DNA of 64,000 nucleotides from Polaromonas sp. (GCA_031424795.1 JANPIC010000133.1:12634-76633), one strand, 5' to 3'; positions 5,076 to 61,239 are shown, counted from the first letter of the stretch. The notes: generated by a model not told the origin, from the letters alone. Numbers and translations are program-made.

Positions 5076-6008
5076 TTGACTTTAGCAATGTCTAGCGAGC
5101 GACCACCCACCATCTCCCCCAACGCCGCTGCGCACTGGCAGCGCATTGCACCTGCTGCAACGCCGTGGCTGCACGAAGAAGTAGCCAGCCGCATGGTGGA
5201 TCGTTTGCAATGGATCAACTTACAGCCCAAAACGTGGGCGCACTGGGGCGCTGTGCGAGGCGGGCAGCAGGCGCATGTGGCATTGCTTGAAAAGTATCCA
5301 GATTCAACCTATTTTTTGCCTCTAGCCGGTGAATTTATTGCCGATAAAGCTATTAAAAATATAGCAAATTATGCGAACTCCAGCAGTAAATGGCAGCTGT
5401 CTAACTTGTTTAAAGCCAAGCCAAAAGTAGATTACTCATATCCAGCCGATAGCACGGTTGACATGCTGTGGGCGAACATGCACTTGCACAACGCACTTGA
5501 TCCGCAGATGTTGATAACGCAGTGGCACAAAGCCATAGCGACGGACGGATTTTTGATGTTCTCCTGCCTGGGGCCAGACACCCTGCGCGAACTGCGTGGT
5601 ATGTACGACAAGCTGGGTTGGCCAGTGCCTAGCCACCAATTTACCGACATGCATGATTGGGGCGATATGCTCATCCAAGCCGGCTTTGCCGAGCCCGTGA
5701 TGGACATGGAGCGCATTGTGCTGACGTACGAAACGCCACAAAAGCTACTGGAAGATTTGCGTGAATTAGGCCGAAACTTGCATCCAGACCGATTTCCTGC
5801 CTTGCGTGGCAAAGCTTGGAAAGCCGAGCTAGAAGCCGCTTTGGTCGAACATTTGGCTGACCCGGCTGAGGGTGGCCGGTTAAAGCTGACCTTCGAAGTC
5901 ATTTACGGCCATGCGATGAAGCCGAAGCCAAGGGTTAAGCTGAGTGAGCATAGCGCGGTGTCATTGCGGGATATGCGGGAGATGTTGCACGGTAGCAGAG
6001 GGCGCTAG
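5076..6008 (+). CDS. BioC-like class I SAM-dependent methyltransferase carrying an in-frame repeat-derived insert
   Basis: 310 aa. The LWANMHLH...GFLMFSCLGPDTLRELR block is typical of betaproteobacterial BioC-like methyltransferases. Residues ~PLAGEFIADKAIKNIANY are encoded by repeat copy A. Confidence 0.55.
   Translation: MTLAMSSERPPTISPNAAAHWQRIAPAATPWLHEEVASRMVDRLQWINLQPKTWAHWGAVRGGQQAHVALLEKYPDSTYFLPLAGEFIADKAIKNIANYANSSSKWQLSNLFKAKPKVDYSYPADSTVDMLWANMHLHNALDPQMLITQWHKAIATDGFLMFSCLGPDTLRELRGMYDKLGWPVPSHQFTDMHDWGDMLIQAGFAEPVMDMERIVLTYETPQKLLEDLRELGRNLHPDRFPALRGKAWKAELEAALVEHLADPAEGGRLKLTFEVIYGHAMKPKPRVKLSEHSAVSLRDMREMLHGSRGR
5318..5370 (-). repeat. Dispersed two-hairpin repeat, copy A (reverse), in-frame inside the BioC-like methyltransferase
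   Basis: gcctctagccggtgaatttattgccgataaagctattaaaaatatagcaaatt matches the family consensus GCTATAAATAAAATAGC-NN-TTTAGGCAATAAATACGCCGGCTAGAGGC on the reverse strand. Confidence 0.85.
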
Positions 6009-6025
6009 TCCATCGAAGAGGGCAT

Positions 6026-6063
6026 AAAAAAACCTGCAAGTAGCAATACTGGCAGGTTTTTTT
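6026..6063. terminator. Bidirectional intrinsic terminator between the convergent methyltransferase and helicase genes
   Basis: aaaaaaacctgc-aagtagcaatactg-gcaggttttttt: a stem flanked by an A-run and a T-run. Confidence 0.7.
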
Positions 6064-6103
6064 GTATTGACTCCCCAATTGAACGGGGAGTTGCTGATGC
6101 GGA

Positions 6104-8251
6104 TTACTTAGCGCGAACGGTGCGAGCCTTGGCCATATCACGCGGCACAAACACTTTGCCGCCATTGCCTGGCTTGGCAGCTGGTTTAGCAAACGTTGGT
6201 TTGGCGAAGCCAGGCTTAGCGAATGCTGGTTTACGGTCAGCAAAGTCGCCACGTGGAGCGAAGTCACCGCGAGGGGCGAAATCTTTACGCGGGGCGAAGT
6301 CGCCGCGCTCAGCACGGTCACCACGAGGCGCAAAATCACCACGTGGAGCGAAGTCTTTACGAGGAGCGAAGTCACCACGTGGGGCAAATTCTTTACGTGG
6401 CGCAAAGTCACCGCGAGGTGCGAAATCGCCGCGAGGAGCTGAATCACCGCGTGGAGGAAAGCCACCGCCGCTATTGCGGTCGTTGAAACCACCTTTGCGA
6501 ACATAGCTGTCTGGTGCGCGAGCGTTGTCAGAAGGGCGTCCAGCGAAACGATCACCGAAACGGTCGCCCTGCGGAGCAGCGAAACCACCGCCTTGAGGCG
6601 CGCGGTCAGCGAAGCCTCCACGGTCACCACCAAAGTTACCACCGCCACCGAAACCGCCTTGGCGAGGTGCAAACTTTCGGTCACGGCCAGCGCCGCCGCC
6701 ATGTCCACGGTCGCCACCAAAACCACCGCGGTCTGGGCCGCCGAAGTTACCAGGGCGTGACTCAGGGAAACGTTGTTTTGGCTCTAAGCCAGGAATGACC
6801 TCTGCTTTGAATGGGGTGCGTGTGAACTGCTCGATGTCCATGATACGGCGACGGTCTCGGATTTCAGCAAAGCTGACAGCGATACCGTCACGGCCAGCAC
6901 GACCTGTACGACCAATACGATGGGTGTAATCCTCGGCTTTCATTGGCAGGCCAAAGTTGAACACGTGGCTGATCGATGGCACGTCAATACCGCGTGCTGC
7001 CACGTCGGTTGCCACCAAAATTTGAACTTGACCTTCGCGCAAAGCTTGCAAGCGGCGGTTACGGATACCTTGGTTCAAAGCGCCGTGCAAAGCAACCGCG
7101 CTGAAACCTTCTTGTTGCAGGTCGTTGGCCAAACCGTCGCACTCGATCTGGGTGCTGGCAAACACGATGGCTTGCTTGATGTTGGTGTCGCGCAACCAGT
7201 GGTCGAGCAACTTGCGTTTGTGCTGAGAATTGTCAGCCCAGAACAACGATTGCTTGATGTTTTGGTGCTTGTCTTGCGGGCTGTCGATGGTGATGCGCTG
7301 TGGCTCACGCATCACACGGCCAGCGAGCTGCTGGATGCGTGGTGCAAACGTGGCGCTGAACATCATGGTTTGTTGGCGGCCGCTGGTCAACTGGTTGACT
7401 TCTGCGAGATCGTCTGAGAAGCCCAAATCGAGCATACGGTCGGCTTCGTCAACGACCAAGAATTTCACTTTGTCGAGCTTCAACTGGTGTGAACGCTGCA
7501 AGTCAAGCAAACGGCCTGGGGTTGCCACCACCAAGTTAGCGTTTTGCAACTTGGCCAATTGCAACTGGTAAGGCATACCCCCCACCACGTTGGCAATGCG
7601 CAAACCTTTGCAGTAGCGCACCAAATCAATCGCGTCGTTGGCAACTTGTTGTGCCAATTCGCGGGTCGGGCAAAGAATCAAAGCGCCTGGCGTGGCCGGT
7701 GTGAAATTGCGGAAATTGGTCGGGTCTTTGCGTTTAGCGCGTTTTGGAGGCGCATCGCCACGGGCTTCGGCTTCAGCGCATGCTGCTTCAAACTCAGCGC
7801 GTTCGGCAGCTGCTTCTTGTTCTTGCTGTTTCAGCAAGGTGTGGATCACAGGCAGCAAAAAGGCGGCAGTTTTACCTGAACCGGTTTGGCTGGACACCAT
7901 CAAGTCAATAAATTTCTTCGGTGTGCCGTCAACAGCATCCGCTGGCAAAGCCAATGGAATTGTTTTCATCTGCACGGTGGTGGGTTGTGTGAAACCCATT
8001 TCTTTCGTCGCTTGAATCAGCTCATCAGCCAAGCCAAGTGCGATAAAGCCGTTTGGCAATTTGGCAGCTTCTTCCGCGGCCAAAGCTTTGGCTGCGGCCA
8101 CTTCATCTACTGCATTTTCAGTAGCAATTGAAGCAGTAAATTCGCCGGCTATGGCAGTATTTAATGTTAATTCGTTGTCGGTCTGAGATTCAAAAGTCGT
8201 TGTCATAGAGTCGGTCATACATAGCCGCCACCAATTTCGGTGCGGTTCCAT
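6104..8251 (-). CDS. DEAD-box ATP-dependent RNA helicase (RhlE-like) with a long repetitive RGG/PRGDFA C-terminal tail
   Basis: Motifs SQTGSGKT, PTRELA, VVDEADRMLD, SAT and HRIGRTGRAG. The real start is probably the ATG at 8218 or 8206. Confidence 0.9.
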   Translation of the reverse strand: MEPHRNWWRLCMTDSMTTTFESQTDNELTLNTAIAGEFTASIATENAVDEVAAAKALAAEEAAKLPNGFIALGLADELIQATKEMGFTQPTTVQMKTIPLALPADAVDGTPKKFIDLMVSSQTGSGKTAAFLLPVIHTLLKQQEQEAAAERAEFEAACAEAEARGDAPPKRAKRKDPTNFRNFTPATPGALILCPTRELAQQVANDAIDLVRYCKGLRIANVVGGMPYQLQLAKLQNANLVVATPGRLLDLQRSHQLKLDKVKFLVVDEADRMLDLGFSDDLAEVNQLTSGRQQTMMFSATFAPRIQQLAGRVMREPQRITIDSPQDKHQNIKQSLFWADNSQHKRKLLDHWLRDTNIKQAIVFASTQIECDGLANDLQQEGFSAVALHGALNQGIRNRRLQALREGQVQILVATDVAARGIDVPSISHVFNFGLPMKAEDYTHRIGRTGRAGRDGIAVSFAEIRDRRRIMDIEQFTRTPFKAEVIPGLEPKQRFPESRPGNFGGPDRGGFGGDRGHGGGAGRDRKFAPRQGGFGGGGNFGGDRGGFADRAPQGGGFAAPQGDRFGDRFAGRPSDNARAPDSYVRKGGFNDRNSGGGFPPRGDSAPRGDFAPRGDFAPRKEFAPRGDFAPRKDFAPRGDFAPRGDRAERGDFAPRKDFAPRGDFAPRGDFADRKPAFAKPGFAKPTFAKPAAKPGNGGKVFVPRDMAKARTVRAK
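6240..6455 (-). repeat. Tandem 18-bp repeat, 12 units, coding (hexapeptide PRGDFA-like) within the DEAD-box helicase tail
   Basis: Units read by hand: gcaaagtcgccacgtgga, gcgaagtcaccgcgaggg, gcgaaatctttacgcggg ... gctgaatcaccgcgtgga. They are contiguous and in phase. Confidence 0.9.
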
Positions 8252-10555: not shown

Positions 10556-11527
10556 ATGAGTAATATGCTTCAAAATGGACTTGTCGTCGCTGGTTTTGGC
10601 CGCCATGTGCTCGTTGAGACTGATGCAGGTGAACGCATTATTTGCCACCCGCGCGGTAAGAAAAACACCGCCGTGGTGGGTGACCGTATCAAATGGCTTG
10701 CAACCCAAGACGAAGGCACAATTGAGAAGCTGGAGCTTAGGAAGAACCTGTTTTATAGGCAAGATGAAATTCGCACCAAATCGTTTGCAGCCAATTTAGA
10801 CCAAATTTTGATTCTGATCGCTGCTGAGCCAGAGTTTTCAGAAAGCCAGCTGTCCCGTGCTTTGATAGCGGCTGAGGCAGAGCACATCAAACCCATCATT
10901 GCGCTGAATAAGAGCGATTTGACCGTGCCATTTGCCAAGGCTTGGGAGCGGCTTCAGCCTTACAAAGAGATGGGCTACGACGTCGTCGCCCTGTCTTTGA
11001 AGCCCAAAAATGTGGGGCTAAAGAGTGCCGCCGAAGACTTTGATATTGAGAAAATCGAGCAACAAGCCGAGCTGTTGATGTCGCTCTTACAGGGCAAAAC
11101 TACATTGGTTTTAGGGCCTTCAGGAGCTGGTAAAAGCACGCTGATCAATGCCGTCGTGCCCAATGCAACAGTGTTCACGCAAGAAATTTCACAAGCTTTG
11201 AATTCTGGCAAACACACGACCACTAGCACCACTTGGTATTGGGTGGATGAGGCAAAAACCACGGCTTTGATTGATTCACCAGGTTTTCAAGAGTTTGGTC
11301 TGAACCACATTGAAGCGAGTCATTTAGCCAGCTATATGCCCGACTTTAAAGTGCATGTGCCGAACTGCAAATTTTACAATTGCAGCCACTTGCATGAGCC
11401 GGGTTGCGGTGTTTTGGAATCCATGAAAAATGATGTAAAAAATGACTCTAGCCGTCGTAAAATAAGCTTAGAGCGCTATCGAATATATAGCAGTTTGTTT
11501 GCTGAATTATCCGAGGTTCGGTACTGA
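10556..11527 (+). CDS. rsgA: Ribosome small-subunit-dependent GTPase A
   Basis: Circularly permuted GTPase with LNKSDL upstream of GPSGAGKSTLINA, and a C-terminal zinc cluster CKFYNCSHLHEPGC. Confidence 0.9.
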   Translation: MSNMLQNGLVVAGFGRHVLVETDAGERIICHPRGKKNTAVVGDRIKWLATQDEGTIEKLELRKNLFYRQDEIRTKSFAANLDQILILIAAEPEFSESQLSRALIAAEAEHIKPIIALNKSDLTVPFAKAWERLQPYKEMGYDVVALSLKPKNVGLKSAAEDFDIEKIEQQAELLMSLLQGKTTLVLGPSGAGKSTLINAVVPNATVFTQEISQALNSGKHTTTSTTWYWVDEAKTTALIDSPGFQEFGLNHIEASHLASYMPDFKVHVPNCKFYNCSHLHEPGCGVLESMKNDVKNDSSRRKISLERYRIYSSLFAELSEVRY

Positions 11528-16875: not shown

Positions 16876-16940
16876 AAAGCAATAAATATGGCTCTAACCG
16901 GTGTATTTATTGCCTTAAATGCTATTAAATTTATATTAAA
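16876..16940 (-). repeat. Dispersed repeat, copy B (reverse), intergenic, 2 nt after the TM2 gene stop
   Basis: aagcaataaatatggctctaaccggtgtatttattgccttaaatgctattaaatttatat. Contains the GCAATAAATA/TATTTATTGC hairpin arms. Confidence 0.8.
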
Positions 16941-20580: not shown

Positions 20581-20652
20581 AAGCAATGAATATGCCTGCA
20601 GCCGGCGTATTTATTCATTATATAGCTATAAAAATTATAGCAATTCTAGAGG
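20581..20652 (-). repeat. Dispersed repeat, copy C (reverse), intergenic, 3 nt after the dehydrogenase stop
   Basis: aagcaatgaatatgcctgcagccggcgtatttattcattatatagctataaaaattatagcaattctagagg. Confidence 0.85.
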
Positions 20653-22494: not shown

Positions 22495-22581
22495 TGGTGC
22501 CGGAGGCCGGAATCGAACCGGCACGGGTCTTACCCCGCGGGATTTTGAGTCCCGTGCGTCTACCAATTTCACCACTCCGGC
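22495..22581 (-). tRNA. tRNA-Leu (anticodon CAA), type II with long variable arm, CCA encoded
   Basis: The reverse complement GCCGGAG-TG-GTGAAATTGGTAGACGC-A-CGGGA-CTCAAAA-TCCCG-CGGGGTAAGACCCGT-GCCGG-TTCGATT-CCGGC-CTCCGGC-ACCA folds as a cloverleaf. Confidence 0.9.
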
Positions 22582-30378: not shown

Positions 30379-30385
30379 GTTAAGC

Positions 30386-31069: not shown

Positions 31070-31094
31070 GTCATCACTATCGAATTCAACTCAA

Positions 31095-36214: not shown

Positions 36215-36287
36215 TTTGCTATTTTTTGCTATAAATAATATAGCTGCTTAGGAAGTAAATACGCCGGCTAGAGGCGTATTTTTAGGC
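36215..36287 (+). repeat. Dispersed repeat, copy D (forward), intergenic after livF
   Basis: tttgctattttttgctataaataatatagctgcttaggaagtaaatacgccggctagaggcgtatttttagg, with hairpin AAATACGCC/GGCGTATTT. Confidence 0.9.
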
Positions 36288-36301
36288 TTGAATCAAAACT
36301 T

Positions 36302-37225: not shown

Positions 37226-37397
37226 GGGGTTGAATTATGACCAAAGAATACGGATTTGTTTGTTTTATTGTGCAGTCAAAGTAAACAATGACTTCATTTT
37301 TGCATACTTCATTAAATTTTACAGTACCTAGAATTTGTGCCTGACAGCAACCGTCTAACCAATTTTTTAACCTGTATTTCTTTTTTTGAAAGTAAAC

Positions 37398-38462: not shown

Positions 38463-38496
38463 TCATAAAACCCCGTATTTTTAAAGGAGACAAAAC

Positions 38497-39456: not shown

Positions 39457-39457
39457 T

Positions 39458-39532
39458 TTTAGCTATAAACAATATAGCTATTTAGGCAATAAATACGCCG
39501 ACTAGAGTCTGATTTCATGCTCTAGCCGGTTC
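39458..39532 (+). repeat. Dispersed repeat, copy E (forward), intergenic between the Bug gene and ppc stops
   Basis: ttttagctataaacaatatagctatttaggcaataaatacgccgactagagtctgatttcatgctctagccggt, with inverted CCGACTAGAG/CTCTAGCCGG arms. Confidence 0.9.
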
Positions 39533-44367: not shown

Positions 44368-45530
44368 GTGACATTTCCATGCAAGACCCCCCTAACAGCC
44401 CTGAGAGCCCTGTGGCACAGGCAGCAACGACCTCAAATGCTTTGCAAAACACGGCTGCCAGTAGTAATCATGTTGGAAATACTGGCTTTTCTAAGTTTTT
44501 TACTATATTTATAATAGCAGCTTTGGCAGTATCTATGCTGGCTAGCTTCTATTTATGGCGTAAATTGACGAATATGCAAGAGCATTTGGCCAGACAAAGT
44601 GCCGATGCGACCAATTTAAGCGTCGAAGCGCGCAGCTTGGCGAAAAACGCGCAAGACGTGGCGCGGGAAGCGTCCGCGAGATCGTCTTTGAACGAAACGC
44701 GGCTGAGCGAAGTTGCCCTGCAGCGCAGCCAGTTGGACGAGTTGATGCAAAGTTTGTCCCGCTCACGCGATGAAAATTTGGTGGTGGATGTGGAGTCTGC
44801 CCTGCGTTTGGCGCAGCAGCAGGCGCAGTTAACCGGCAGTGTCGAGCCGCTTTTGGCTGCTTTGAAAACAGCAGACCAGCGTTTGGCACGTGCAGCCCAA
44901 CCCCGTTTGAACGCCGTGCGCCGAGCCTTGGCCAGTGACACCGACAAAATCAAGGCCGCAGCGGTGACAGATATTCCAAGCTTACTCGTCAAGCTGGACG
45001 AAATCAGCCGTTTGGTGGAAGACTTGCCCGTGTTGAATACGGTGACAGCGGTGGCGAGGGTTGACAAGCAAAACGCGCCATCTAACACATCATCCAAGGC
45101 GTCAGGTGCTAAATCAGCTGTAAATACCTCTGCAAACCAAGATGCCGACTGGCAAAGCAGTGTGCAAAACTTCATGCAAAACAATTGGCAAATTGTCCGT
45201 GCTGAACTTGCGAAATTGGTGCGCGTCAGCCGCATTGAAAACCCAGATGCCGTGCTGCTGTCGCCTGAGCAAACCTACTTTTTGCGTGAAAACCTCAAAC
45301 TCAAAATCCTCAATGCAAGGCTTGGTTTGTTGGGGCGGCAAATTCAGTCTGCTAAATCTGACCTAGCGTCAGTGGCGGACGATGTGCGTAAGTACAGCGA
45401 CCCAACCTCCAGACAAGCGCAGACGCTGCAAAGCGCGCTGTCACAAGTGCAGACGCAGCTGGGCAATGCCAGCATTCCTGCGCTTGATTCATCTTTAGCA
45501 GCGTTGACGCTGGCTGCGGCGGGTAAATAA
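44364..45530 (+). CDS. hemX: HemX-like membrane-anchored protein (uroporphyrinogen-III C-methyltransferase-like family)
   Basis: Single N-terminal TM anchor, then a coiled-coil-rich domain. ATGA overlap with hemD; hemCDXY order. Confidence 0.75.
   Translation: MSDISMQDPPNSPESPVAQAATTSNALQNTAASSNHVGNTGFSKFFTIFIIAALAVSMLASFYLWRKLTNMQEHLARQSADATNLSVEARSLAKNAQDVAREASARSSLNETRLSEVALQRSQLDELMQSLSRSRDENLVVDVESALRLAQQQAQLTGSVEPLLAALKTADQRLARAAQPRLNAVRRALASDTDKIKAAAVTDIPSLLVKLDEISRLVEDLPVLNTVTAVARVDKQNAPSNTSSKASGAKSAVNTSANQDADWQSSVQNFMQNNWQIVRAELAKLVRVSRIENPDAVLLSPEQTYFLRENLKLKILNARLGLLGRQIQSAKSDLASVADDVRKYSDPTSRQAQTLQSALSQVQTQLGNASIPALDSSLAALTLAAAGK
44496..44546 (+). repeat. Dispersed repeat, copy M (forward, degenerate), encodes the HemX TM anchor
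   Basis: tttttactatatttataatagcagctttggcagtatctatgctggctagc aligns colinearly with the consensus, with about 10 mismatches. Confidence 0.6.
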
Positions 45531-46859: not shown

Positions 46860-49454
46860 ATGACGCTTATGTCGTTCTGGCATGGTCGGATTAGCTTGCT
46901 TTTTGCAACCTTGTTGGCTTGGGTAATGGGCACTTGGTTGCAGCTGCTGCAAACGTCTTTGAATGATGCTTTATTTTATGCATCATATTTGGCTCTAGCC
47001 GGCGTGTTTGTTGCCTGTATTGCTATAAATGGTAGAGTAAAAAATACGAAAAATAAACACCCATATTTCCACATTTTGTTACCCATTTGCATACTGTTAG
47101 CCAGCGGCTGTGCAGCTTTTGGTTTGACTGGTTTGCGTGCTGTTGCCTACGCCTCGCATCAGCTGTTGCCGGCTTACGAAGGGCGGGACATCCAGGTCGT
47201 CGGGGTTGTCTCTGCCATGCCGCATATCAACGAGATGGGAACACGGTTTCAGCTTGATGTTGAGTCTGCACAATTGCTGACTCTTGCATCTTCAAATACG
47301 GAGCAACTTCAAAGCAAGCAAGTTGTTGAGTTGCCTTCTAAAATTTCACTCAGTTGGTATGGCAGCGTTTTTGGTGCTGTGGAAAATGCGGACGACTTGG
47401 CAACACTGCAGCGCAAACCCATGCCTATTCTTCCCGGTGAACGTTGGCAAATGACGGTACGACTCAAAGCACCGCATGGCAACAGCAACCCAGGCGGTTT
47501 TGACTTTGAACTGTGGCTGTGGGAGCAAGGCATACAAGCGACTGGTTATGTGCGCACGGGCGCAAACGACGTCGCACCCGTACGCATCGCGCAGACCTGG
47601 CAGCATCCAGTTGAACAATTGCGTTACAAAGTGCGAGATGCCATTTTTGCGCGTATGTCATCGCACATGTCACCTTCAGACTCTTTCAAAAATTCAAGTG
47701 AAGCAGGTATCGTTGCCGCTTTGGTGACGGGTGACCAGCAGTCGATTGACCGTGCCGATTGGGATGTCTTTCGCACCACAGGCGTTGCGCATTTGATGAG
47801 TATTTCAGGTCTCCACATCACCATGTTTGCTTGGGGCGCAGTGCTTGTGGTGGGTATGTTGTACAGACGATCAACGCGCTTATGTTTGGCTTACCCCGCA
47901 ACAAACGCTGCTTTGCTGGGCGGTTTGATGCTGGCGACAGGCTACGCGGTCTTTAGTGGTTGGGGTGTGCCATCGCAGCGGACGATTTTGATGCTGGCAA
48001 CGGTAACGTTGCTCAGATTATTTGGCAAACGCTGGCCTTGGCCAACGGTGTGGATGTTGGCTTGCGCCGTAGTGGTTGCGGTTGACCCTTGGGCATTGCT
48101 GCAAGCGGGTTTTTGGCTCAGCTTTGTGGCAGTCGGCGTGTTGTTTGCCACGGATATTTCGACCAATACCCCAAGACTTTCGGATCGCAATCATGCTGAT
48201 GTCGATGCCAATGACAATGCTTCATCAAAATCAAACTTGGCAGCAACATTCAAAAAGAAATTATGGCTAAGTGGTCGTGAGCAGTTCATCATCACCATGG
48301 TGCTTGCACCCTTGACGCTGTTGCTGTTTGGTCAAGTTTCTGTGGTCGGGCTTTTGGCAAATGCTTTGGCCATACCGTGGGTGACGCTGGTTGTGACGCC
48401 CTTGGCAATGCTGGGCGCAATTGCTTCTCCGATGTGGGATTTAGCCGGTTTGGCTGTGCATGTGTTAAGCCGATTTTTAGGTTTACTGGCTGGATTGCCG
48501 TTTGCCACAGTCTCTGTTGCTGTCCCGCATCTGCTGGTGAGTGTTATTGCTATGTTAGGTGGTGTTCTTTTGGTTTTGCCATGGCCTTGGCAACTGCGCC
48601 TTCTCGGCTTCCCTTTGTTGCTGCCAGTTATTTTGTGGCAAGCGCCTCGCCCAGCAGACGGGCAATTTGAATTGATAGCGGCTGATATTGGTCAAGGCAA
48701 CGCCGTCATCATACGAACGGCAAAGCACACGCTGGTGTATGACGCGGGGCCGCGTTATTCCATTGACAGCGATGCCGGTCATAGGGTGTTGGTTCCGCTA
48801 TTGCGGGCGACGAATGAAAGCGTTGATACCGTCATGCTCAGCCACCGCGATATTGACCATTCAGGCGGCATCAAATCTGTGCTGGCCATGCATCCGAAAG
48901 CAAACTTCATCAGTTCAATTGAAAGCACCCATGAATTACAAGTTCTCCGTCCCGTGCAGCGTTGTGTGGCTGGGCAAGCGTGGCAATGGGATGGCGTTGA
49001 TTTTGCTGTGCTTCACCCATCAACGTCAGATTATGAATCGCCACAAAAATCAAACGCCATGAGTTGTGTGTTGCGCATCAGCACGCCACAAGCCAGTGTT
49101 TTGTTGGCTGGCGATATTGAACTGGCGCAGGAAACAAGACTGGTATCAAACCAACAAAACGATGGTTTGAAATTAACGAGTACGATGTTATTGGTGCCGC
49201 ACCACGGCAGCAAAACCTCGTCTAGTGCTGCATTTCTAGAGGCTGTTCAACCGCAGTTTGCGGTCGTGCAAGCGGGTTACAGAAATCGTTTCGGTCATCC
49301 CGCCGCAAATGTTCTGGAGCGCTATAACGGACGCAATATCAAAGTGATAGACACAGCGCATTGTGGAGCAATGCTTTGGAGCAGCTCAACACCGAAGGAA
49401 GCGCGTTGCCAACGTGAAATTGCTGGGCGGTATTGGCATCATCAAGTGCCGTAA
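46860..49454 (+). CDS. comEC: DNA internalization-related competence protein ComEC/Rec2
   Basis: 864 aa. Competence (polytopic) domain with GVAHLMSISGLH, plus a C-terminal metallo-beta-lactamase domain (SHRDIDHSGG). Confidence 0.9.
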   Translation: MTLMSFWHGRISLLFATLLAWVMGTWLQLLQTSLNDALFYASYLALAGVFVACIAINGRVKNTKNKHPYFHILLPICILLASGCAAFGLTGLRAVAYASHQLLPAYEGRDIQVVGVVSAMPHINEMGTRFQLDVESAQLLTLASSNTEQLQSKQVVELPSKISLSWYGSVFGAVENADDLATLQRKPMPILPGERWQMTVRLKAPHGNSNPGGFDFELWLWEQGIQATGYVRTGANDVAPVRIAQTWQHPVEQLRYKVRDAIFARMSSHMSPSDSFKNSSEAGIVAALVTGDQQSIDRADWDVFRTTGVAHLMSISGLHITMFAWGAVLVVGMLYRRSTRLCLAYPATNAALLGGLMLATGYAVFSGWGVPSQRTILMLATVTLLRLFGKRWPWPTVWMLACAVVVAVDPWALLQAGFWLSFVAVGVLFATDISTNTPRLSDRNHADVDANDNASSKSNLAATFKKKLWLSGREQFIITMVLAPLTLLLFGQVSVVGLLANALAIPWVTLVVTPLAMLGAIASPMWDLAGLAVHVLSRFLGLLAGLPFATVSVAVPHLLVSVIAMLGGVLLVLPWPWQLRLLGFPLLLPVILWQAPRPADGQFELIAADIGQGNAVIIRTAKHTLVYDAGPRYSIDSDAGHRVLVPLLRATNESVDTVMLSHRDIDHSGGIKSVLAMHPKANFISSIESTHELQVLRPVQRCVAGQAWQWDGVDFAVLHPSTSDYESPQKSNAMSCVLRISTPQASVLLAGDIELAQETRLVSNQQNDGLKLTSTMLLVPHHGSKTSSSAAFLEAVQPQFAVVQAGYRNRFGHPAANVLERYNGRNIKVIDTAHCGAMLWSSSTPKEARCQREIAGRYWHHQVP
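46991..47035 (-). repeat. Dispersed repeat, copy G (reverse, partial), in-frame near the ComEC N-terminus
   Basis: ggctctagccggcgtgtttgttgcctgtattgctataaatggtag. Confidence 0.7.
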
Positions 49455-49470: not shown

Positions 49471-50559
49471 CTATTTTCCCATCTGCTGAGCTACTTCACG
49501 ACCTAGATCAATCACTGACATGGCATAGTAGCTGCTCCAGTTGTAGCGGGTGATGGCGTAAAAATTCTCTGTTCCAGCCACATAGCTAGGCGTATTTTCT
49601 GCAATGCTAGGGTCGCCATTTTGCAGTTCTATCAACGCTAGTGGACCGGTATGTGCAGCACCAACAGCATTCAAATTTGCGCCTTTGGCCATGAAGCTGG
49701 TGACGCTAAACGTAGGCAAAATATCAGGTGCCATCAGTGCATCCATGTCTAATTTTGCAGTATCAAAAGTAACGGGGTAATGCGTTGGCATACCTGGTTG
49801 CCACTTGAAGGCTTTGAAATAGTTGGCAACAGAGCCGATCACATCGGCAGGGCTGGTGAACAAATCGACCTTGCCATCTTCATCAAAATCAATCGCATAT
49901 TTCACCCAGCTGCTAGGCATAAACTGCGGTAAACCCATGGCACCTGCGTAGCTGCCGCGTGGCGACAGCGGGTCAACACCAGAGCGTGAGGTCAGCGATA
50001 AAAAATGTTCTAACTCGCCTTTGAAAAACGCCTGCCGTTCAGCAGCGCGAGGGTGGGATGCAGGGAAGTCAAACGTTAAAGTCGTCAGCGCATCAATCAC
50101 CCGATAGCTGCCCGTATCGCGCCCATAAATGGTTTCAACACCAATGATGCCCACGATGATCTCCGCTGGCACACCGTATTCTTTCTCCGCTTTGGTTAGT
50201 GCCGCCGCATTGTCTTGCCAAAATTTAACGCCTGCCTTGATACGGACAGGGTCAATAAACCGACTGCGATAAACGCGCCAGTTTTTGGCGACACCCCTAG
50301 GAGCTGGCTGCATCAGTCGTGAGATTTGCCCAATGTTCCTAGCTTGACCAATTGCATTCCGTACCCACTCTTTGTCCAAATCGCGCCGTTCAGCAATATC
50401 GTCAGCCATCTGCATGGCCTCTGTGCGTGTGGCGTAGAGTTCGTACTGTGTTGAAGGTTTTGCGCTAACCTGTTTTTTATTGCCAATTTGTGCTGTAGCC
50501 GGCGTATTTATTGCTTGAAATGCTATAAATAGCATAGTAAAAATTAATCTTTGTTGCAT
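49471..50559 (-). CDS. mltB: Lytic murein transglycosylase B
   Basis: GIIGVETIYG and AGAMGLPQFMPSSW motifs. The signal peptide is encoded by repeat copy I. Confidence 0.85.
   Translation of the reverse strand: MQQRLIFTMLFIAFQAINTPATAQIGNKKQVSAKPSTQYELYATRTEAMQMADDIAERRDLDKEWVRNAIGQARNIGQISRLMQPAPRGVAKNWRVYRSRFIDPVRIKAGVKFWQDNAAALTKAEKEYGVPAEIIVGIIGVETIYGRDTGSYRVIDALTTLTFDFPASHPRAAERQAFFKGELEHFLSLTSRSGVDPLSPRGSYAGAMGLPQFMPSSWVKYAIDFDEDGKVDLFTSPADVIGSVANYFKAFKWQPGMPTHYPVTFDTAKLDMDALMAPDILPTFSVTSFMAKGANLNAVGAAHTGPLALIELQNGDPSIAENTPSYVAGTENFYAITRYNWSSYYAMSVIDLGREVAQQMGK
50492..50541 (-). repeat. Dispersed repeat, copy I (reverse on +, forward relative to mltB), encodes the MltB signal peptide
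   Basis: gctgtagccggcgtatttattgcttgaaatgctataaatagcatagtaaa. Confidence 0.85.
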
Positions 50560-52681: not shown

Positions 52682-53677
52682 TCAATACAGGGCAAGTGCT
52701 TGCAAACACTGCTGTTGATGCGCTTCACCATTTGCCGGAGAAATCTCGGTTTTAGGCAATCGTAGCCCAGGCAATCGCAGCCCATACACCAAGCCAAGCG
52801 TCTCAGCCTGTACCACCCAAGCACACAGCCGCGAGAGCGAAGCTTCCGTATCTGCACAGCCCGTGCGTGCAAAATCTAGCCACAGCTCTTGCGCAGCTGC
52901 GTGTTGGGTATCGCGGCTGATCAAATCAATGGAAGGGCTGGGGTCATCCGCATCCATGCTCGCCCAGGTTTTGGCAACTTTCTTCCACACAATGTGCTTC
53001 ATGGGGTCGCCACGGCGGTAGGCACGTATGCCGTCAAATTCACCTGTCGCTTTTGTTTGCGCCTGTTTGGCGTCGCCAGACAGCGGCTCGCCAGCCGGCA
53101 AAGCTGGCGCATTGGGCTCAATAGCTGGATAAACCCACACGTGCATCGCAGGGCGTATGACAGTCCACACCCGAAACGTACCCATGGGAAAACGCGTCTC
53201 GGCAGTCAGTGTCGGCAGCCGGTGCTTGCCGCGCGGCATGCCTTGGCCAGCGATTTTTACGGTGGCGCTGCCCTGAGCCGGTACATCTGCCCATGTCCAA
53301 TGCGACAGATTCAGAACACTCATGCCAATGCCGTGTCTGAGGCGCTTTCCTGCACTGCTCAAAACAAGCTCAAAATTAACAATAGCTGGCGTAAAATATG
53401 CCTGAGGTGCTATGATGTTGATAGCTATTCCGCGTAGATTGGCATGTCCAATGTGCATCCCAACCAGCACACTACCACCTATCAAAAACGTCAACAAATA
53501 GCCTAAATTCAACTGGTAGTTGATGCTGGCGACTAACAGCACCAGCAAGGTCACCACCATCATCCAGCCGGCTTTGGTCGGCAAAATGTAGACATTGCGC
53601 TGGTTCAGCAGCATGCTGTCGGTCAACGGCAATCGGGCTTCAAACCATTGCTGAAAGCGTTTGCGAAAGAAGCCCAT
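52682..53677 (-). CDS. DUF58-domain protein
   Basis: Two N-terminal TM helices and the GEFDGIRAYRRGDPMKHIVWK motif. Positioned between the MoxR and TGase genes. Confidence 0.8.
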   Translation of the reverse strand: MGFFRKRFQQWFEARLPLTDSMLLNQRNVYILPTKAGWMMVVTLLVLLVASINYQLNLGYLLTFLIGGSVLVGMHIGHANLRGIAINIIAPQAYFTPAIVNFELVLSSAGKRLRHGIGMSVLNLSHWTWADVPAQGSATVKIAGQGMPRGKHRLPTLTAETRFPMGTFRVWTVIRPAMHVWVYPAIEPNAPALPAGEPLSGDAKQAQTKATGEFDGIRAYRRGDPMKHIVWKKVAKTWASMDADDPSPSIDLISRDTQHAAAQELWLDFARTGCADTEASLSRLCAWVVQAETLGLVYGLRLPGLRLPKTEISPANGEAHQQQCLQALALY

Positions 53678-57489: not shown

Positions 57490-57526
57490 GATTTATGTTC
57501 CTTAAATGTATGTGGATGATGTCAGC

Positions 57527-57546
57527 TAAGCCTATGATTCTAGCAT
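57527..57546 (-). promoter_or_regulatory. Putative rpsT promoter
   Basis: The minus strand reads GCTAGAATCATAGGCTTAG. Confidence 0.45.
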
Positions 57547-57619
57547 TTTTGAGGACTCCAGTCCACGCATTGCTGGGCTTAGATGGCTGCGAGGCTTTTG
57601 AAATAGCGCTAAAATGGAT

Positions 57620-57635
57620 GTATTACATGTAATAC
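57620..57635 (+). promoter_or_regulatory. 16-bp perfect palindrome, candidate operator of the toxin-antitoxin operon
   Basis: GTATTACATGTAATAC lies immediately upstream of the AGGAG Shine-Dalgarno of the RHH antitoxin gene. Confidence 0.5.
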
Positions 57636-57647
57636 AGGAGTTCTGAC

Positions 57648-57884
57648 ATGTCCAGTTCCGTGATGACCATCCGCTTATCCCAAGACGATACAGTCAGATT
57701 GGCAAATTTGTCTGAAAAAACGCACCGCCCCAAATCTTTTTACATCAAAGAGGCACTTGCTCGCTATTTCGAAGATATGGAAGATCTTTATTTAGCCGAA
57801 AGCGCTATGGCTCGCATCCGCTCAGGGGAAGAGCGTACTTACACCTTAGACGAAGTAGAGGCCAAGCTTGGTTTGGCGGGTTGA
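57648..57884 (+). CDS. Type II antitoxin, ribbon-helix-helix (CopG/RelB/ParD-like)
   Basis: 78 aa. RHH N-terminus (MTIRLSQDDTVRLANLSEKTHRPKSFYIKEALARYF). Overlaps the downstream RelE/ParE gene by 17 nt. Confidence 0.8.
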   Translation: MSSSVMTIRLSQDDTVRLANLSEKTHRPKSFYIKEALARYFEDMEDLYLAESAMARIRSGEERTYTLDEVEAKLGLAG

Positions 57885-58137
57885 GCTGTCGGAGACGGCG
57901 CTTAAAAACCTCTCCAAGCTCGACAAACCAGTAGCACTACGAATTCGTAATTTTCTTCGCGACAGGCTGTCCGCATTAGACGACCCGCGCAGCATAGGCG
58001 AGGCACTTAAAGGCGCAAAGCTGGGTGATTTGTGGAAATACCGAGTCGGCGATTATCGTGCCATAGCCAGCATCGAAGACGGCAAAGTCGTCATCTTGGT
58101 TTTAGCAATTGGAAATCGTAAAGAAGTTTATCGTTGA
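57868..58137 (+). CDS. Type II toxin, RelE/ParE superfamily
   Basis: 89 aa. LKNLSKLDKPVALRI...LWKYRVGDYRAIASIEDGKVVILVLAIGNRKEVY is the canonical RelE/StbE pattern. TTG start. Confidence 0.85.
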   Translation: MVWRVELSETALKNLSKLDKPVALRIRNFLRDRLSALDDPRSIGEALKGAKLGDLWKYRVGDYRAIASIEDGKVVILVLAIGNRKEVYR

Positions 58138-58145
58138 GGCTAAGT

Positions 58146-58198
58146 TTTGCTATATTTAAAATAGCACTTTAGGCAATAAATACGCCGGCTAGAGGTGT
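58146..58198 (+). repeat. Dispersed repeat, copy J (forward), 8 nt after the relE/parE stop; left border of the low-GC cassette
   Basis: ttttgctatatttaaaatagcactttaggcaataaatacgccggctagaggtg. Shares an identical 29-nt core with copy K. Confidence 0.9.
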
Positions 58199-58243
58199 AA
58201 ATGAGGAATAAATTAGAGGTTTTATGCACTAATCTTGCATTTA

Positions 58244-58582
58244 TCAAACTTCATTTTCAAGTAACTCAGTCGCTTGAGCCAATTTTTCATTTTTGCAATA
58301 CTCGGCATAGTTTTTGCCGAATTCTTTTTTATACCAAGATCCGACAATATAGCGGCTTAAGAAATAGCTAACTCTTTGCAAAAAAATAAAGACTGGAAAG
58401 ACAATTAATATTACAAATAGCATTTCTATGCTAAGTGAATTCCATGCTATGTCACGATACCAGCGTATTGCACCCAATACAGACGTCAAAAAAAATGTAC
58501 TGTTAAGTACAATTCTCTGCATGCGTAAATTTGCATTTCGGAACTTGAAAAACTCTAATTTTTTAATTTCATCCATTTGCAC
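58244..58582 (-). CDS. Hypothetical small membrane protein (two predicted TM helices), low-GC cassette
   Basis: Hydrophobic segments IVLNSTFFLTSVLGAI and MLFVILIVFPVFIFL with a charged C-terminal tail. The likely start is ATG 58576 (AGG upstream). I recognise no family. Confidence 0.6.
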   Translation of the reverse strand: MQMDEIKKLEFFKFRNANLRMQRIVLNSTFFLTSVLGAIRWYRDIAWNSLSIEMLFVILIVFPVFIFLQRVSYFLSRYIVGSWYKKEFGKNYAEYCKNEKLAQATELLENEV

Positions 58583-58723
58583 AAACCTTATTTTTATTTA
58601 CATTTAAAACTTGAAAATATTTTTTAAACTTATGAGTGAATAATGCATTTTAGTTCTAAATAAAATAGAATTTTAGATAATAAATGCGATTGCCAAAAAC
58701 ATAAGTTATATGAAAATATGGAT

Positions 58724-59374
58724 TTAAGATTTGTCGAAACTTTGAAATTTTTCGATAAGTTCAATAATTCGTTTGGCTTGGGCTGCATACTGTTTGTAGC
58801 AGCCTTCAATATTATCAACGACCAAGCTATGGTTGCCGTTTTCTAGCTTCTGGAATGTGAGATTGTTGTAGTACTTTGCACGTTCAACAGTTTCGGCGTT
58901 GAAATCGAGGGCGCTTCGGATTTCTAGCAATGCTCTTTGAGTATCCGTGTCGAAGCTCCATATTGCGGAAACCCTAGCATCCAAAAGTGGGGTTCCGTAT
59001 TTTTGCAAAGTAAGGCTCTTTCCAGCTGGAGCTTTCTTGCTGAGGAAGAATTGATTCAATTGCTCGTCTGTAGCATGAAGGTATGGTTTAAGTACTGAGC
59101 AGATCTTCTGCGCATCAGTGTCAGCAGTTTCAGTGCTTAGGTGCTTAATAAGCCATTTGAGGCTTTGCCTAGTCATTGTGCCTTGGTGCTCTTCAATGGT
59201 ATAGCTACAAAGCGCTAATTTAATCTTTAGAGAGGAAAGTTCTGATCTAATTGCTTCTCGACCAAGCTTGTTTTCTCGGAGCCGCTTTATTTCATCTACG
59301 ACTATCGGGGCTAATAGACCTAGTAGCCATCCCAAGAGCAAAAGTGCAAGCTTCTCCATGGTTTCCTTAAGCAT
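58724..59374 (-). CDS. Hypothetical protein with one N-terminal TM helix and a ~185-aa helical domain, low-GC cassette
   Basis: LALLLLGWLLGLLAPIVV anchor. The likely start is ATG 59359, preceded by AAGGA. I recognise no catalytic or family motif. Confidence 0.65.
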   Translation of the reverse strand: MLKETMEKLALLLLGWLLGLLAPIVVDEIKRLRENKLGREAIRSELSSLKIKLALCSYTIEEHQGTMTRQSLKWLIKHLSTETADTDAQKICSVLKPYLHATDEQLNQFFLSKKAPAGKSLTLQKYGTPLLDARVSAIWSFDTDTQRALLEIRSALDFNAETVERAKYYNNLTFQKLENGNHSLVVDNIEGCYKQYAAQAKRIIELIEKFQSFDKS

Positions 59375-59508
59375 TTTGTTCGAAAAGGTCTAGAAGTAAT
59401 TAGTATTGCAAAAGTTGCAAAAATTTCTTAGAGAGTAATGCAATATAACTTAAATTTCACGAAAACAGCATCAAATTTAGTCAAATTTCACTGTTAAATT
59501 ATTTAATC

Positions 59509-59568
59509 TGCTATAAATAAAATAGCGCTTTAGGCAATAAATACGCCGGCTAGAGGCATATTTAAAGG
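59509..59568 (+). repeat. Dispersed repeat, copy K (forward), right border of the low-GC cassette, upstream of murJ
   Basis: ctgctataaataaaatagcgctttaggcaataaatacgccggctagaggcatatttaaagg. Confidence 0.9.
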
Positions 59569-59667
59569 CTAAAATGGGACAAATCAGCCATAAATCCACA
59601 AAAACAAGCCAAATCTACCTTTAAACGGCTTCCGTAGCTCCGAATTAAGCCGCTAAACTCAATCCCC

Positions 59668-61239
59668 ATGTCCCTGCTCAAATCCGCCTCCGTCATCTCG
59701 CTGCTCACGCTGGTATCCCGCATCACAGGTATGGTGCGTGACCAGTTGATGGCGGCTATGTTTGGGGCTTCGGCTATGACGGATGCGTTTAACGTGGCGT
59801 TTCGGCTGCCGAATATGTTCAGGCGGCTGTTTGCGGAAGGGGCGTTTAGCCAGGCGTTTGTGCCTGTTTTGGGGGCGAGCAAGGTTAAAAACGGGGACGA
59901 GGCGACCAAGGTGTTGGTTGATCGTGTCGCCACCGTGCTGTTTTGGGTGTTGGTGCTCACTTGCGTGATTGGCGTAGCCGCTGCGCCTGCGCTGGTGTGG
60001 GTGATGGCCAGCGGGCTGCAGCAAAACCAGCAGGGGTTTGACGCTGCGGTGTTCATGGCGCGGTGGATGTTTCCTTACATTGGGTTCATGTCGCTGGTGG
60101 CGCTGGGCGCGGGGGTGCTGAACACCTACAGACGCTTTGCCGTGCCTGCCGTGACGCCTGTTTTGCTGAATATGGCGATGATTTTGGCGGCTTGGCTGGG
60201 TGCACCGTGGTTCAAAAGCATGGGGATTCAGCCGATTTACGCGATGTCTATGGGTGTTATTGGTGGTGGCGTGTTGCAGTTGGTGATGCAGTGGCTGGCG
60301 CTGCGCAAAATTGGCATGTTGCCGAAAATTCGCGCCAATTGGGCGGAAGTGAAGGCGGCTTGGGCGGATGCGGGCGTTAAAAACGTGGCTAAATTGATGC
60401 TGCCAGCGCTTCTCGGCGTGGGGGTGGCGCATATTTCGGCGATTATCAACCTGCAGATCGCCTCGCATTTAACGCCCGGCAGTGTCAGCTGGATGAGCTA
60501 CGCCGAGCGGTTGATGGAGTTTCCCACCGCCATGCTGGGCGTTGCGCTGGGCGTGGTGCTGACGCCGCGCTTGGTGGCGGCCAAGGCCAGCGGTGACGAC
60601 GCCACCTATTCCGCCATGATTGACTGGGGGCTGCGGCTGGTGATCTTGCTGGCTGTGCCTTGTACCGTGGCGTTGCTGCTGTTTGCCAAGCCGCTGGTGG
60701 CGACTTTGTTCCATTACGGCGTGTTTTCAAGCAACGATGTGCAGCAGGTGACCACGCCTTTGATGGGCTACGGCGTCGGTTTGATTGGTTTGGTCGCTAT
60801 CAAAATATTGGCGCCCGGGTTTTACGCCAGCCAAGACATCAAAACCCCAGTCAAAATCGCCATTGCTGTGCTCATCATCACCCAGCTGCTGAATATCGCA
60901 CTGGTGCCGCTGTTTGCGCACGCGGGGCTGGCGCTGGCGATTGGCTTGGGTGCGTTGATCAACGCGCTGTGGCTGCTGATTGGTTTGATCAAGCGTGGCA
61001 GCTACCAGCCGTTGCCGGGGTGGGGTAAATTCATCGCCCAAGTCGTCATTGCCAGCGCCTTATTAGGGGTCTGGTTGTGGTGGAGCGCGGGTTATGTTGA
61101 TTGGGTTGCGCTAAAAAGTGACGTTTTTAAGAGAATAATGCTTCTAGCCGGCGCATTAATTGCCTCTGCAGCTATTTATTTTATAGCATTGATGGTTGCT
61201 GGTGTGAAAATCAAGACTTTGCTGCGGGGTCAAGGCTAG
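59668..61239 (+). CDS. murJ: Lipid II flippase MurJ (MviN)
   Basis: MSLLKSASVISLLTLVSRITGMVRDQLMAAMFGAS...FRLPNMFRRLFAEGAFSQAFVP. Confidence 0.95.
   Translation: MSLLKSASVISLLTLVSRITGMVRDQLMAAMFGASAMTDAFNVAFRLPNMFRRLFAEGAFSQAFVPVLGASKVKNGDEATKVLVDRVATVLFWVLVLTCVIGVAAAPALVWVMASGLQQNQQGFDAAVFMARWMFPYIGFMSLVALGAGVLNTYRRFAVPAVTPVLLNMAMILAAWLGAPWFKSMGIQPIYAMSMGVIGGGVLQLVMQWLALRKIGMLPKIRANWAEVKAAWADAGVKNVAKLMLPALLGVGVAHISAIINLQIASHLTPGSVSWMSYAERLMEFPTAMLGVALGVVLTPRLVAAKASGDDATYSAMIDWGLRLVILLAVPCTVALLLFAKPLVATLFHYGVFSSNDVQQVTTPLMGYGVGLIGLVAIKILAPGFYASQDIKTPVKIAIAVLIITQLLNIALVPLFAHAGLALAIGLGALINALWLLIGLIKRGSYQPLPGWGKFIAQVVIASALLGVWLWWSAGYVDWVALKSDVFKRIMLLAGALIASAAIYFIALMVAGVKIKTLLRGQG
61141..61190 (-). 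repeat. Dispersed repeat, copy L (reverse), in-frame in the last TM region of MurJ
   Basis: cttctagccggcgcattaattgcctctgcagctatttattttatagcatt. Confidence 0.75.

Follow-up and report, generated by a model that had tools for sequence, protein, structure and literature searches.

A dispersed two-module repeat of Polaromonas and related Comamonadaceae, conserved as sequence and found both behind genes and within them

A 64,000-nt stretch of Polaromonas sp. DNA (GCA_031424795.1 JANPIC010000133.1:12634-76633; hereafter, the window) carries 19 copies and relics of a short, AT-rich two-module repeat, and the same repeat recurs in this freshwater betaproteobacterium and its relatives at a density of about one copy per 3-5 kb. 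The repeat family is genuine, and what is conserved in it is the sequence of its stems and core, not the pairing of its hairpins, the palindromic consensus itself being real. The best reading is an undescribed relative of the repetitive extragenic palindromic (REP) sequences and the Rickettsia palindromic elements (RPEs) that is recognised by its primary sequence; that these are non-autonomous dispersed repeats of this type, short in length and old as a family, has, in our estimate, a probability of about 0.5. An earlier reading of the window from its sequence alone (the sequence-only reading) had described the dispersed repeat, and missed the in-frame coding copies in two preferred frames, their use as signal peptides and helices, the occurrence of both insertions and replacements, and the age of the family, which spans genera.

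To detect copies, an nhmmer profile was built from nine of them and then iterated over the window and related loci (consensus TTTGCTATAAATTTAATAGCTGCTTAGGCAATAAATACGCCGGCTAGAGGCATATTTA), the profile being derived from the repeat family itself; the comparison genomes are mostly metagenome-assembled genomes (MAGs), whose loci are labelled L with a number, and gene calls outside the window are crude, being based on open reading frames (ORFs). The profile gives 19 matches in the window, of which 12 are strong (41-60 bits, E 1e-10 to 1e-16) and 7 are weaker relics, the scores forming a continuum from 60 down to 16 bits (Table 1). Every one of the 13 positions listed in the sequence-only reading holds a copy, 12 of them strong and one (44496, in a HemX helix) a weak relic with a score of 27 bits; to these the profile adds six relics of 16-37 bits. 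The consensus given in that reading agrees with the profile consensus, and its count of 6 forward and 7 reverse copies is correct, becoming 9 and 10 when the relics are included. A 29-nt core pattern with up to 3 mismatches matches the window 4 times vs. 0 times in 100 shuffles, and the 17-nt module-1 palindrome pattern matches it 14 times vs. 0.15 expected, whereas the best profile score was 7.3 bits in a control of 158 kb of E. coli K-12 DNA that is rich in transporter genes and has the same G+C content as the window (51%). The shuffles and this control rule out chance and low complexity as the source of the matches, and the control also rules out that the weak matches are an artefact of membrane-helix coding; the similarity is not confined to AT-rich runs, as it covers a 26-nt core that contains G+C. 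No Rfam family matches the repeat, in accordance with its description as an unnamed family: at the gathering score the window gives only tRNA-Leu(CAA) (22495-22581, - strand), the sole structured RNA gene detected in it, and at E ≤ 1 nothing is found around the two best copies. The core string was absent from a full-text literature search, and a search for betaproteobacterial coding palindromes surfaced nothing relevant.

The unit spans 57 nt (consensus TTTGCTAT-N7-ATAGC-TGCTTAGGCAATAAATACGCCGGCTAGAGGCATATTTA; information content about 68 bits in the profile) and is built from the palindrome GCTAT-N7-ATAGC (5-7-5) and, behind it, an asymmetric core of 26 nt, TTAGGCAATAAATACGCCGGCTAGAG; a looser right-hand extension brings the full unit to about 78 nt. 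Most conserved are the stems GCTAT and ATAGC, which are always separated by 7 nt, and the run TTAGGCAATAAATACGCCGGCTA-AG; variable are the loop of module 1 (7 nt), the linker (5 nt) and the right arm GGCATATTTA. Module 2 has the geometry AATAAATACGCC / GGCTAGA / GGCATATTTA, with one arm far better conserved than the other, and conservation in the profile is highest in the hairpin-2 loop and in the unpaired sequence from linker to core. There are no conserved inverted termini in the 108-column profile, and no target-site duplication was seen, no empty site having been found in which the exact ends could be read. Among the related loci, one sub-family differs in the right part, and Ca. Aalborgiella has a lineage variant. 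Two other candidate functions were rejected: promoter-like sigma-70 matches over the copies are no commoner than in shuffles, and in a by-eye comparison with sigma-54 sites the GG/GC spacing fits the core but the conserved bases do not.

The two hairpins proposed in the sequence-only reading are not what is conserved. The consensus is palindromic (75% of cells pair, vs. 31-37% when the partner columns are slid), and the fold of the reverse-strand RNA (-16.4 kcal/mol) is somewhat better than that of shuffled sequences (z = -2.4), but the fold of the forward strand is not (z = -1.1). In 140 intergenic copies, the covariation score is 0.032 vs. 0.036 in shuffles, only 2 pairs vary on both sides, and there are no compensatory changes that maintain the stems. 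At two stem positions of helix 2, 116 and 79 of the 140 copies are unpaired, helix 2 pairs in only 67% of cells, and the outer pair of helix 1 is an A.C mismatch in 28% of copies. Because the variation is non-compensatory and covariation is lacking, we conclude that the primary sequence is conserved, not base pairing, and the retention of stem and core sequence in spite of lost pairing suggests that the sequence is recognised by a protein.

Of the intergenic copies, 133 could be classified by the gene calls: 58% lie between tandem genes (63% for the baseline of all intergenic regions), 35% between convergent genes (17%) and 7.5% between divergent genes (19%), with a median gap of 33 nt from the upstream stop codon to the copy. 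The repeat is thus located as REPs are, mainly downstream of ORFs in tandem and convergent arrangements, and the REP-like placement suggested earlier from the window holds for the related loci. In the window itself, five of the six intergenic copies follow a stop codon on the + strand, as had been claimed, the measured distance being 5-31 nt, and the names assigned to the upstream genes are upheld (TM2, by a weak match only; 2-hydroxyacid dehydrogenase; LivF-like ABC; TctC/Bug; ParE/RelE). The suggested terminator role found no such support: copies show no preferred orientation with respect to the upstream gene (45 opposite, 32 same), and not one of the window's six intergenic copies is called terminator-like, including the copy at 16884 with its long hairpin and T run on the - strand. 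In one orthologous set (L012, L022 and L090), a canonical G+C-rich terminator (AACCCCCTC...GGGGGTTTGGTGTTTT) directly follows the copy, which sits between the stop codon and this real terminator (Table 1).

About 30% of the copies lie in long open frames or coding sequence, and those in long open frames are concentrated in frames F0 (31 copies) and R2 (21 copies), each other frame holding 3-6. In the window, 12 of the 13 coding copies are in F0 or R2 (p ~ 2e-5, by our own binomial estimate). The consensus holds a stop codon in all six frames, and F0 and R2 need just one repaired each. The encoded peptides, FAxxxIAxQAINTPAxx in F0 and xMPLAG(V/E)FIAxxAIKxIA in R2, are both hydrophobic, and they form signal peptides, membrane helices and loops of host proteins that were confirmed by Pfam and homologue search. 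All seven coding copies of the sequence-only reading (in the genes for the BioC-like protein, LolA, HemD, HemX, ComEC, the MltB-like protein and MurJ) are upheld, the BioC-like gene (5076-6008) being real by homologue search; in addition to signal peptides and helices, repeat-encoded segments occur in HemD, the BioC-like protein, RarA and a DEAD-box helicase (6104-8251), in which the DEAD domain begins at residue 92. The signal peptide that the repeat encodes in the MltB-like protein ends in a good A-x-A cleavage motif, and the SLT_2 domain starts at residue 48. The LolA peptide FIAxQAINTPAAG recurs in almost the whole set of the 120 closest relatives, which extend down to 73% identity, variants appearing among the most distant of them. 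The HemD segment is present in 120/120 of the closest HemD proteins; a shorter version persists in orthologues of 60-75% G+C, and some orthologues are without the segment entirely. The relics of the window also have counterparts: for the relics at 1221 and 1574, weak matches also fall in the KefC-like gene of L197, and for that at 1574 in the KefC-like gene of L198 as well, and both loci have 28-38-bit matches near the start of the adjacent gene of about 690 codons, comparable to the relic at 8113.

Two coding copies are net insertions of equal size, as in RPEs, where a peptide is added in frame to an otherwise conserved protein. In DapF of L111, 39 residues stand in place of 13 in PDB 8QZY, and in DapE of L032, 30 residues stand in place of 4 in PDB 8F8O; each gain of 26 residues includes the repeat peptide. 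Both insertions comprise the repeat peptide and the right-hand extension, which suggests a full unit of about 78 nt. PurL (L039) and the linker of an ABC exporter (L010) also look longer than what we take to be the usual lengths in their families, and the HemD orthologues with and without the segment are grouped with these insertions.

The family extends well beyond the window, which is 99.8% identical to two metagenome contigs in ENA. The exact core 18-mer GCAATAAATACGCCGGCT was found in at least 112 further stretches among species-representative genomes, almost all of them MAGs of Polaromonas, Variovorax, Rhodoferax, Brachymonas, Burkholderiaceae and Ca. Aalborgiella (Comamonadaceae), with G+C contents of 46-61% and many from glacier-fed streams. 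The listed 18-mer stretches (0.8 Mb) hold 233 profile matches, and 229 copies with E < 1e-6 were counted in the 0.86 Mb made up by these stretches and the window. The sequence-only reading thus withstands the refuting test that it had set itself. The 18-mer occurrences outside this group (Aggregatibacter, a Hydrogenedentota MAG, a gammaproteobacterial MAG) agree with the repeat in the core only and were attributed to chance. Two relatives that were fetched by way of a protein, and are hence unbiased with respect to the repeat, hold only weak coding relics in 42 kb; the expansion is therefore lineage-specific. In 562 kb of G+C-rich loci, GCTAT-N7-ATAGC occurs 3 times vs. 0.03 expected, and never with another spacer length; at one of the three sites, the entire element appears to have a G+C-rich cognate. 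Such an apparent cognate, TTGCTATCTTTTGTATAGCTGCTCGGGCAATGGGATGTGGCGC, is seen at L134 12440-12500 (- strand), in a genome of 70% G+C. A diverged variant of the family may exist in G+C-rich Comamonadaceae.

Copies also mark recombination junctions. L052 is 87% identical to the window over 28537-36192 and then jumps to 39462; the 3.27-kb segment that is missing from it (36290-39457; a LysR gene, a gene of the isocitrate/isopropylmalate dehydrogenase family (Iso_dh) and a TctC/Bug gene) is flanked in the window by two direct copies, and the junction in L052 (1-343) retains one copy only. With L080, synteny starts precisely at the copy at 59505. To the left of it, the sequence at about 57500-59500 is low in G+C (0.40 in 58001-60000) and contains a ParE/RelE toxin gene and two ORFs without a Pfam match; as synteny starts only at 59505, this stretch looks like an accessory insertion beside rpsT and murJ. 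The two near-consensus copies of the window, its best, lie in this accessory stretch, which we count as a sign of recent activity. The window has no transposase among the ORFs scanned, a subset of all its ORFs, as the sequence-only reading had also stated. A tblastn search with E. coli RayT detected one IS200-like Y1 gene, in L098 (1758-2480, -; Pfam Y1_Tnp, E 7e-11), the stop codon of which is followed after 13 nt by a degenerate copy of the repeat (71% identical); a full copy lies at a distance of about 570 nt.

Table 1. Copies and relics of the repeat in the window, and copies that precede a terminator in other loci. Positions are those of the window unless a locus is named; matches that the profile added to the 13 of the sequence-only reading are marked "added".
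Class	Position	Strand	Bits	Context	Frame	Encoded segment	Remarks
weak relic	1221-1259	+	22.8	KefC-like gene (351-2189, -)	R2	WLIASVLTAFIAIKFAVI	membrane helix; added
weak relic	1574-1629	+	24.9	KefC-like gene	R2	YSAIKIIAIIA	added
strong copy	5315-5368	-	48	BioC-like methyltransferase gene (5076-6008, +)	R2	LPLAGEFIADKAIKNIAN	
relic	8113-8162	+	28.9	DEAD-box helicase gene (6104-8251, -)	R2	AIAGEFTASIATENA	N-terminal extension; added
faint relic	11442-11492	-	16.9	3' end of RsgA-like ORF (10556-11527, +)	R1		E 0.004; least certain; added
intergenic copy	16884-16935	-	45	TM2-like / LysR gene			fills 71-nt gap; 9 nt past stop
intergenic copy	20589-20643	-	44.6	2-hydroxyacid dehydrogenase (+) / PHO4 transporter (-)			convergent; 10 nt past stop
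coding copy	30398-30452	+	49	LolA signal peptide	F0	MFKYFAMLFVAVQAINTPAAG then LNALENF	LolA domain by Pfam
coding copy	31583-31638	-	36.5	RarA/MgsA linker (31095-32369, +)	R2	IIALASVFSVSIAIDKVAID	also in L052; added
intergenic copy	36225-36281	+	54.8	after LivF-like gene			convergent; left edge of 3.27-kb segment
intergenic copy	39462-39515	+	49	after TctC/Bug gene			convergent; right edge of 3.27-kb segment
coding copy	43734-43789	-	51	hemD (43525-44367, +)	R2	NMPIAGEFIDYSAIKNIAN	
weak relic	44500-44545	+	27	HemX membrane helix (44364-45530, +)	F0	FFTIFIIAALAVSMLAS	weakest of the 13
coding copy	46985-47041	-	41	first ComEC membrane helix (46860-49454, +)	R2	LALAGVFVACIAINGR	conserved in L113
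coding copy	50485-50541	-	47	signal peptide of MltB-like lytic transglycosylase (49471-50559, -)	F0	MQQRLIFTMLFIAFQAINTPATA then QIG	
faint relic	53380-53425	-	16.1	331-aa ORF (52682-53677, -)	F0	AINIIAPQAYFTPA	E 0.0075; uncertain; added
near-consensus intergenic copy	58146-58200	+	57	after ParE/RelE toxin gene			8 nt after gene; 40% G+C stretch
consensus-perfect intergenic copy	59509-59563	+	60	upstream of murJ			divergent region
coding copy	61138-61188	-	42.7	MurJ transmembrane helix 14 (59668-61239, +)	R2	MLLAGALIASAAIYFIAL	
copy before terminator	L022 4726-4830			between stop codon and real terminator			
copy before terminator	L090 4141-4240			between stop codon and real terminator			
copy before terminator	L012 2540-2645			between stop codon and real terminator			

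The TctC/Bug gene of the 3.27-kb segment (38497-39456) is one of two TctC/Bug receptor genes in the 64 kb; the other (4061-5062) is found immediately upstream of the BioC-like gene and is missing from the matching place in L196, L197 and L198.

For a family of REP/RPE type, new copies would be gained when the whole unit inserts, in most cases shortly downstream of a gene, and copies in coding sequence would survive only where the peptide is tolerated, that is, in the two frames that need one stop codon repaired; the tolerated hydrophobic peptides may then have been put to use as signal peptides, membrane helices and surface loops. The family would be recognised as a sequence by a protein, either a mobilising enzyme or a host factor, not as an RNA hairpin, and copies may also overwrite partly similar native sequence by short-patch copying. 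Several observations weigh against such a mobile origin. No empty site was found when the flanks of 250 copies were compared to all loci, and in every orthologous comparison that was possible (flanks 70-95% identical) the copy is present on both sides. The strands are used equally in a window that mostly has one sign of GC skew. The Y1 gene of L098 is bracketed by its own, unrelated 25-nt inverted repeats (1630-2513; TAATTAGGGTCAGATTCTAATTAAA, 92% complementary), and a link between this transposase and the repeat family is suggestive at most and could be coincidence. As rejected candidates we note that the only apparent empty site (L086 vs. L109) is due to a second, unrelated G+C-rich palindromic insert beside a shared copy, and that the inverted repeat of L098, considered as a second dispersed family, is unique to that locus among all loci compared. 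The insert in L086 (about 5045-5135; CCGTTCGCATTGAGCTTGTCGAA...TTCGACAGGCTCAGCCCGAACGGGTAGGG), absent from L109, has a GTAG-like end and may be a classical REP.

The manner in which copies are kept in place is a further difficulty for the mobile reading. In 12 orthologous intergenic pairs, with orthology inferred from flanking genes and loop similarity, identity is 97% in the stems, 88% in the core, 67% in the module-1 loop, 47% in the linker and 30% in the upstream flank (flank identities are ungapped); in random non-orthologous pairs, the module-1 loop reaches 48% and the core 81%. Of the copy upstream of murJ, the 32-nt core is identical in L080, where 5/7 loop bases differ and the upstream flank is unalignable. 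Neutral decay of a selfish element would not be expected to spare stem and core while the flanks decay. Moreover, G+C-rich relatives hold module 1 at the DNA level, in rare codons, in both hemD and the BioC-like gene. In hemD of relatives of 60-75% G+C, the segment is written with the AT-ending codons GCT, AAA (100%), ACA (88%) and AGA (71%), whereas AT-ending codons in the rest of the gene are mostly at about 10-25%, and GCT ATG AAA AAT ATA GCG is retained in the BioC-like gene of P. jejuensis. The family, or module 1 at any rate, is therefore older than the low-G+C lineage, and it is subject to DNA-level constraint or repeated conversion. The comEC genes of the G+C-rich loci are non-syntenic. 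At the 3' end of hemD (about 44350-44367), the orthologues of 60-75% G+C have I276 as ATA (96%) and E277 as GAA (100%), a codon constraint that probably reflects the overlapping start region of hemX.

Finally, not every coding copy is an insertion, as would be typical of RPEs: five cases are length-neutral, and these equal-length replacements are the main reason why our confidence in a simple mobile element is only 0.5. Helix 14 of MurJ has no indel relative to the solved MurJ structure 7WAW, and by our count about 44/51 nt of its DNA fit the repeat consensus, including synonymous sites and the rare codons CTA and ATA. RarA has gained no length compared to E. coli 3PVS, its usual xRGxG loop being replaced. 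The segment LPLAGEFIADKAIKNIAN of the BioC-like protein aligns without indels to VAEAHSDRAQQAMKNIAKP of G+C-rich Polaromonas, with graded intermediates between them. Likewise, the repeat-encoded signal peptide of LolA is a length-neutral replacement relative to distant LolA proteins, which have ordinary, unrelated signal peptides of similar length, and in a MurJ loop of L026 a copy replaces about 36 nt where the window and L080 keep native sequence of equal length. In several of these replacements, an AIKNIA-like stretch, the R2 reading of module 1, was present in the native protein beforehand.

These replacements suggest that the repeat may also spread by templated, length-preserving conversion, or by a molecular drive like that of uptake signal sequences (USS), overwriting similar native DNA; such a process, apparently seeded at GCTAT-N7-ATAGC-like sequences (peptide AIKNIA) by a sequence-specific factor, seems to us unlikely, although less so than either of the two explanations considered last below. 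An alternative is that the motif is maintained in place, as an uptake-like sequence or a genome-wide protein-binding site kept by drive or selection, with copies arising by substitution and coding copies replacing native codons. It would account for the equal-length replacements in MurJ, RarA, the BioC-like protein and the LolA signal peptide that match at synonymous sites, for the graded series of matches in the BioC-like protein, for scores that run continuously from 60 to 16 bits, for position-specific conservation with a free loop and no covariation, and for orthologous copies kept while flanks diverge. The equal use of both orientations, the enrichment at gene ends, the preferred frames, the location in poorly conserved protein regions and the lineage variant of Ca. 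Aalborgiella would also be explained, and comEC is present in the window. Uptake sequences similarly show reading-frame preferences and prefer poorly conserved regions (Findlay & Redfield 2009, PMC2817400). However, the motif carries about 68 bits over 57 nt compared to a core of 9-12 nt in known uptake sequences, its density is about one per 3-5 kb compared to about one per kb, and placement without indels in preferred frames is true of five coding copies but false of DapE and DapF, with their insertions of equal size. Furthermore, the two best copies are in a low-G+C accessory stretch, whereas genes that have no homologues in related genomes reportedly lack uptake sequences (PMC2817400); the two repeat-unbiased relatives have only their weak coding relics; and no report of transformation or of an uptake sequence in Comamonadaceae surfaced in a full-text search. 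On balance, we regard maintenance in place as possible but somewhat unlikely.

Two further explanations appear less probable. That the copies are hairpins in the RNA, serving as transcription terminators or as protection for mRNA 3' ends, the idea put forward in the sequence-only reading, would fit their position 5-31 nt past stop codons and their enrichment between convergent genes, the palindromic consensus, the fold of the reverse-strand RNA, and the window copies at 16884 and 20589, in which long stems are followed by a T run; nevertheless, we consider it improbable given that the right arm is degenerate, covariation is absent, the most conserved sequence is in a loop and an unpaired segment, the forward strand folds no better than shuffles, canonical terminators follow the copies of L012, L022 and L090, no intergenic window copy is called terminator-like, and copies are unbiased in orientation to the gene and in about 30% of cases are inside genes. 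Still more remote is the proposal that module 2 is the core site of a tyrosine recombinase, with inverted arms of 9-12 bp and an asymmetric 7-bp spacer, and that copies bracket exchangeable cassettes. The arm-spacer-arm geometry with one arm much better conserved fits, as does the 3.27-kb segment between direct copies that is gone from L052 with one copy left, but plain homologous recombination between 57-nt repeats explains this junction equally well, no recombinase gene adjoins the cassette, and with hundreds of sites per genome (extrapolated from the density) in both orientations an active recombinase would scramble the genome. The repeat also seems unlike what we take to be the dif and attC consensus sequences.

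If the REP/RPE-type reading holds, a free-living and environmentally abundant lineage, the glacier-stream Comamonadaceae, would offer a tractable model for how a selfish-looking repeat comes to serve as working protein parts, among them the export signals of LolA and of the MltB-like protein and the last helix of MurJ; to our knowledge, Rickettsia has so far been the main example of repeats that form parts of proteins. Conservation as sequence, and in place, points to a protein partner and possibly to a host function, and, as far as this family goes, a view of REPs centred on hairpins would have to be adjusted. In practice, copies at gene starts and ends will mislead the annotation of start codons and terminators, and they mark junctions in MAG assemblies. 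The equal-length replacements, if confirmed, would represent a new route by which repeats change proteins, and conversion or drive, if true, would mean that a dispersed motif has remodelled essential proteins throughout a bacterial lineage, in their signal peptides, linkers and one transmembrane helix.

Comparison with known systems shows that the repeat shares with REPs, with the REP doublets known as REPINs and with their associated tyrosine transposases (RAYTs) a short palindromic unit in high copy number, a location downstream of tandem and convergent ORFs, long-lived vertical inheritance, some intragenic copies and a Y1_Tnp gene in one related MAG. REPs are mostly found downstream of ORFs, and intragenic REPs and RPEs have been documented (Di Nocera 2013, PMC3733652). 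In contrast to REPs of 20-40 nt with a single palindrome, the repeat measures 57-78 nt in two modules, its stem is not maintained and shows no covariation, and about 30% of its copies are in coding sequence. It also has no conserved unpaired GTAG/CGTC tag: the reverse-strand motif NTAGCCGGCG, in which N is C in 47%, G in only 28%, A in 13% and T in 12%, sits inside the hairpin-2 loop and not at an end, and the consensus is without CGTC. Unlike REPINs, the copies are mostly isolated, with no regular head-to-head dimers seen in the loci read (not tabulated), and unlike in RAYT systems the inverted repeats on either side of the sole Y1 gene detected are unrelated ones of its own, an arrangement that resembles the tyrosine transposases associated with terminal inverted repeats (TIRs) described by Di Nocera et al. 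As in RPEs, copies are in frame in many unrelated housekeeping genes predicted to be still functional and are common to species, and the gain of 26 residues in DapE and DapF and the position of the peptide in loops and termini correspond to the RPE literature as summarised in PMC3733652; the host, however, is free-living, the sequence unrelated and the unit shorter, the hydrophobic peptide serves as signal peptide or transmembrane helix, and several copies replace native sequence without a change in length. With the MITEs (inverted-repeat transposable elements of miniature size) Correia/NEMIS, ERIC and RUP, the repeat has in common that these are small, non-coding and dispersed, can lie at gene ends and can alter ends or expression, but no TIRs of 15-30 bp or target-site duplication were seen in it, and it is at or below the lower limit of the MITE size range of 70-300 bp (definition quoted in PMC3733652). 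The USS of Pasteurellaceae and the DNA uptake sequences (DUS) of Neisseriaceae are similar in their conservation of primary sequence, their occurrence in both orientations, their lineage variants, and their preferred coding frames at poorly conserved residues without indels (PMC2817400), compared to which the repeat is about five times longer and about four times sparser and includes true insertions. We therefore file the repeat as a relative of the REP/RPE kind, with a USS-like nature as a serious rival.

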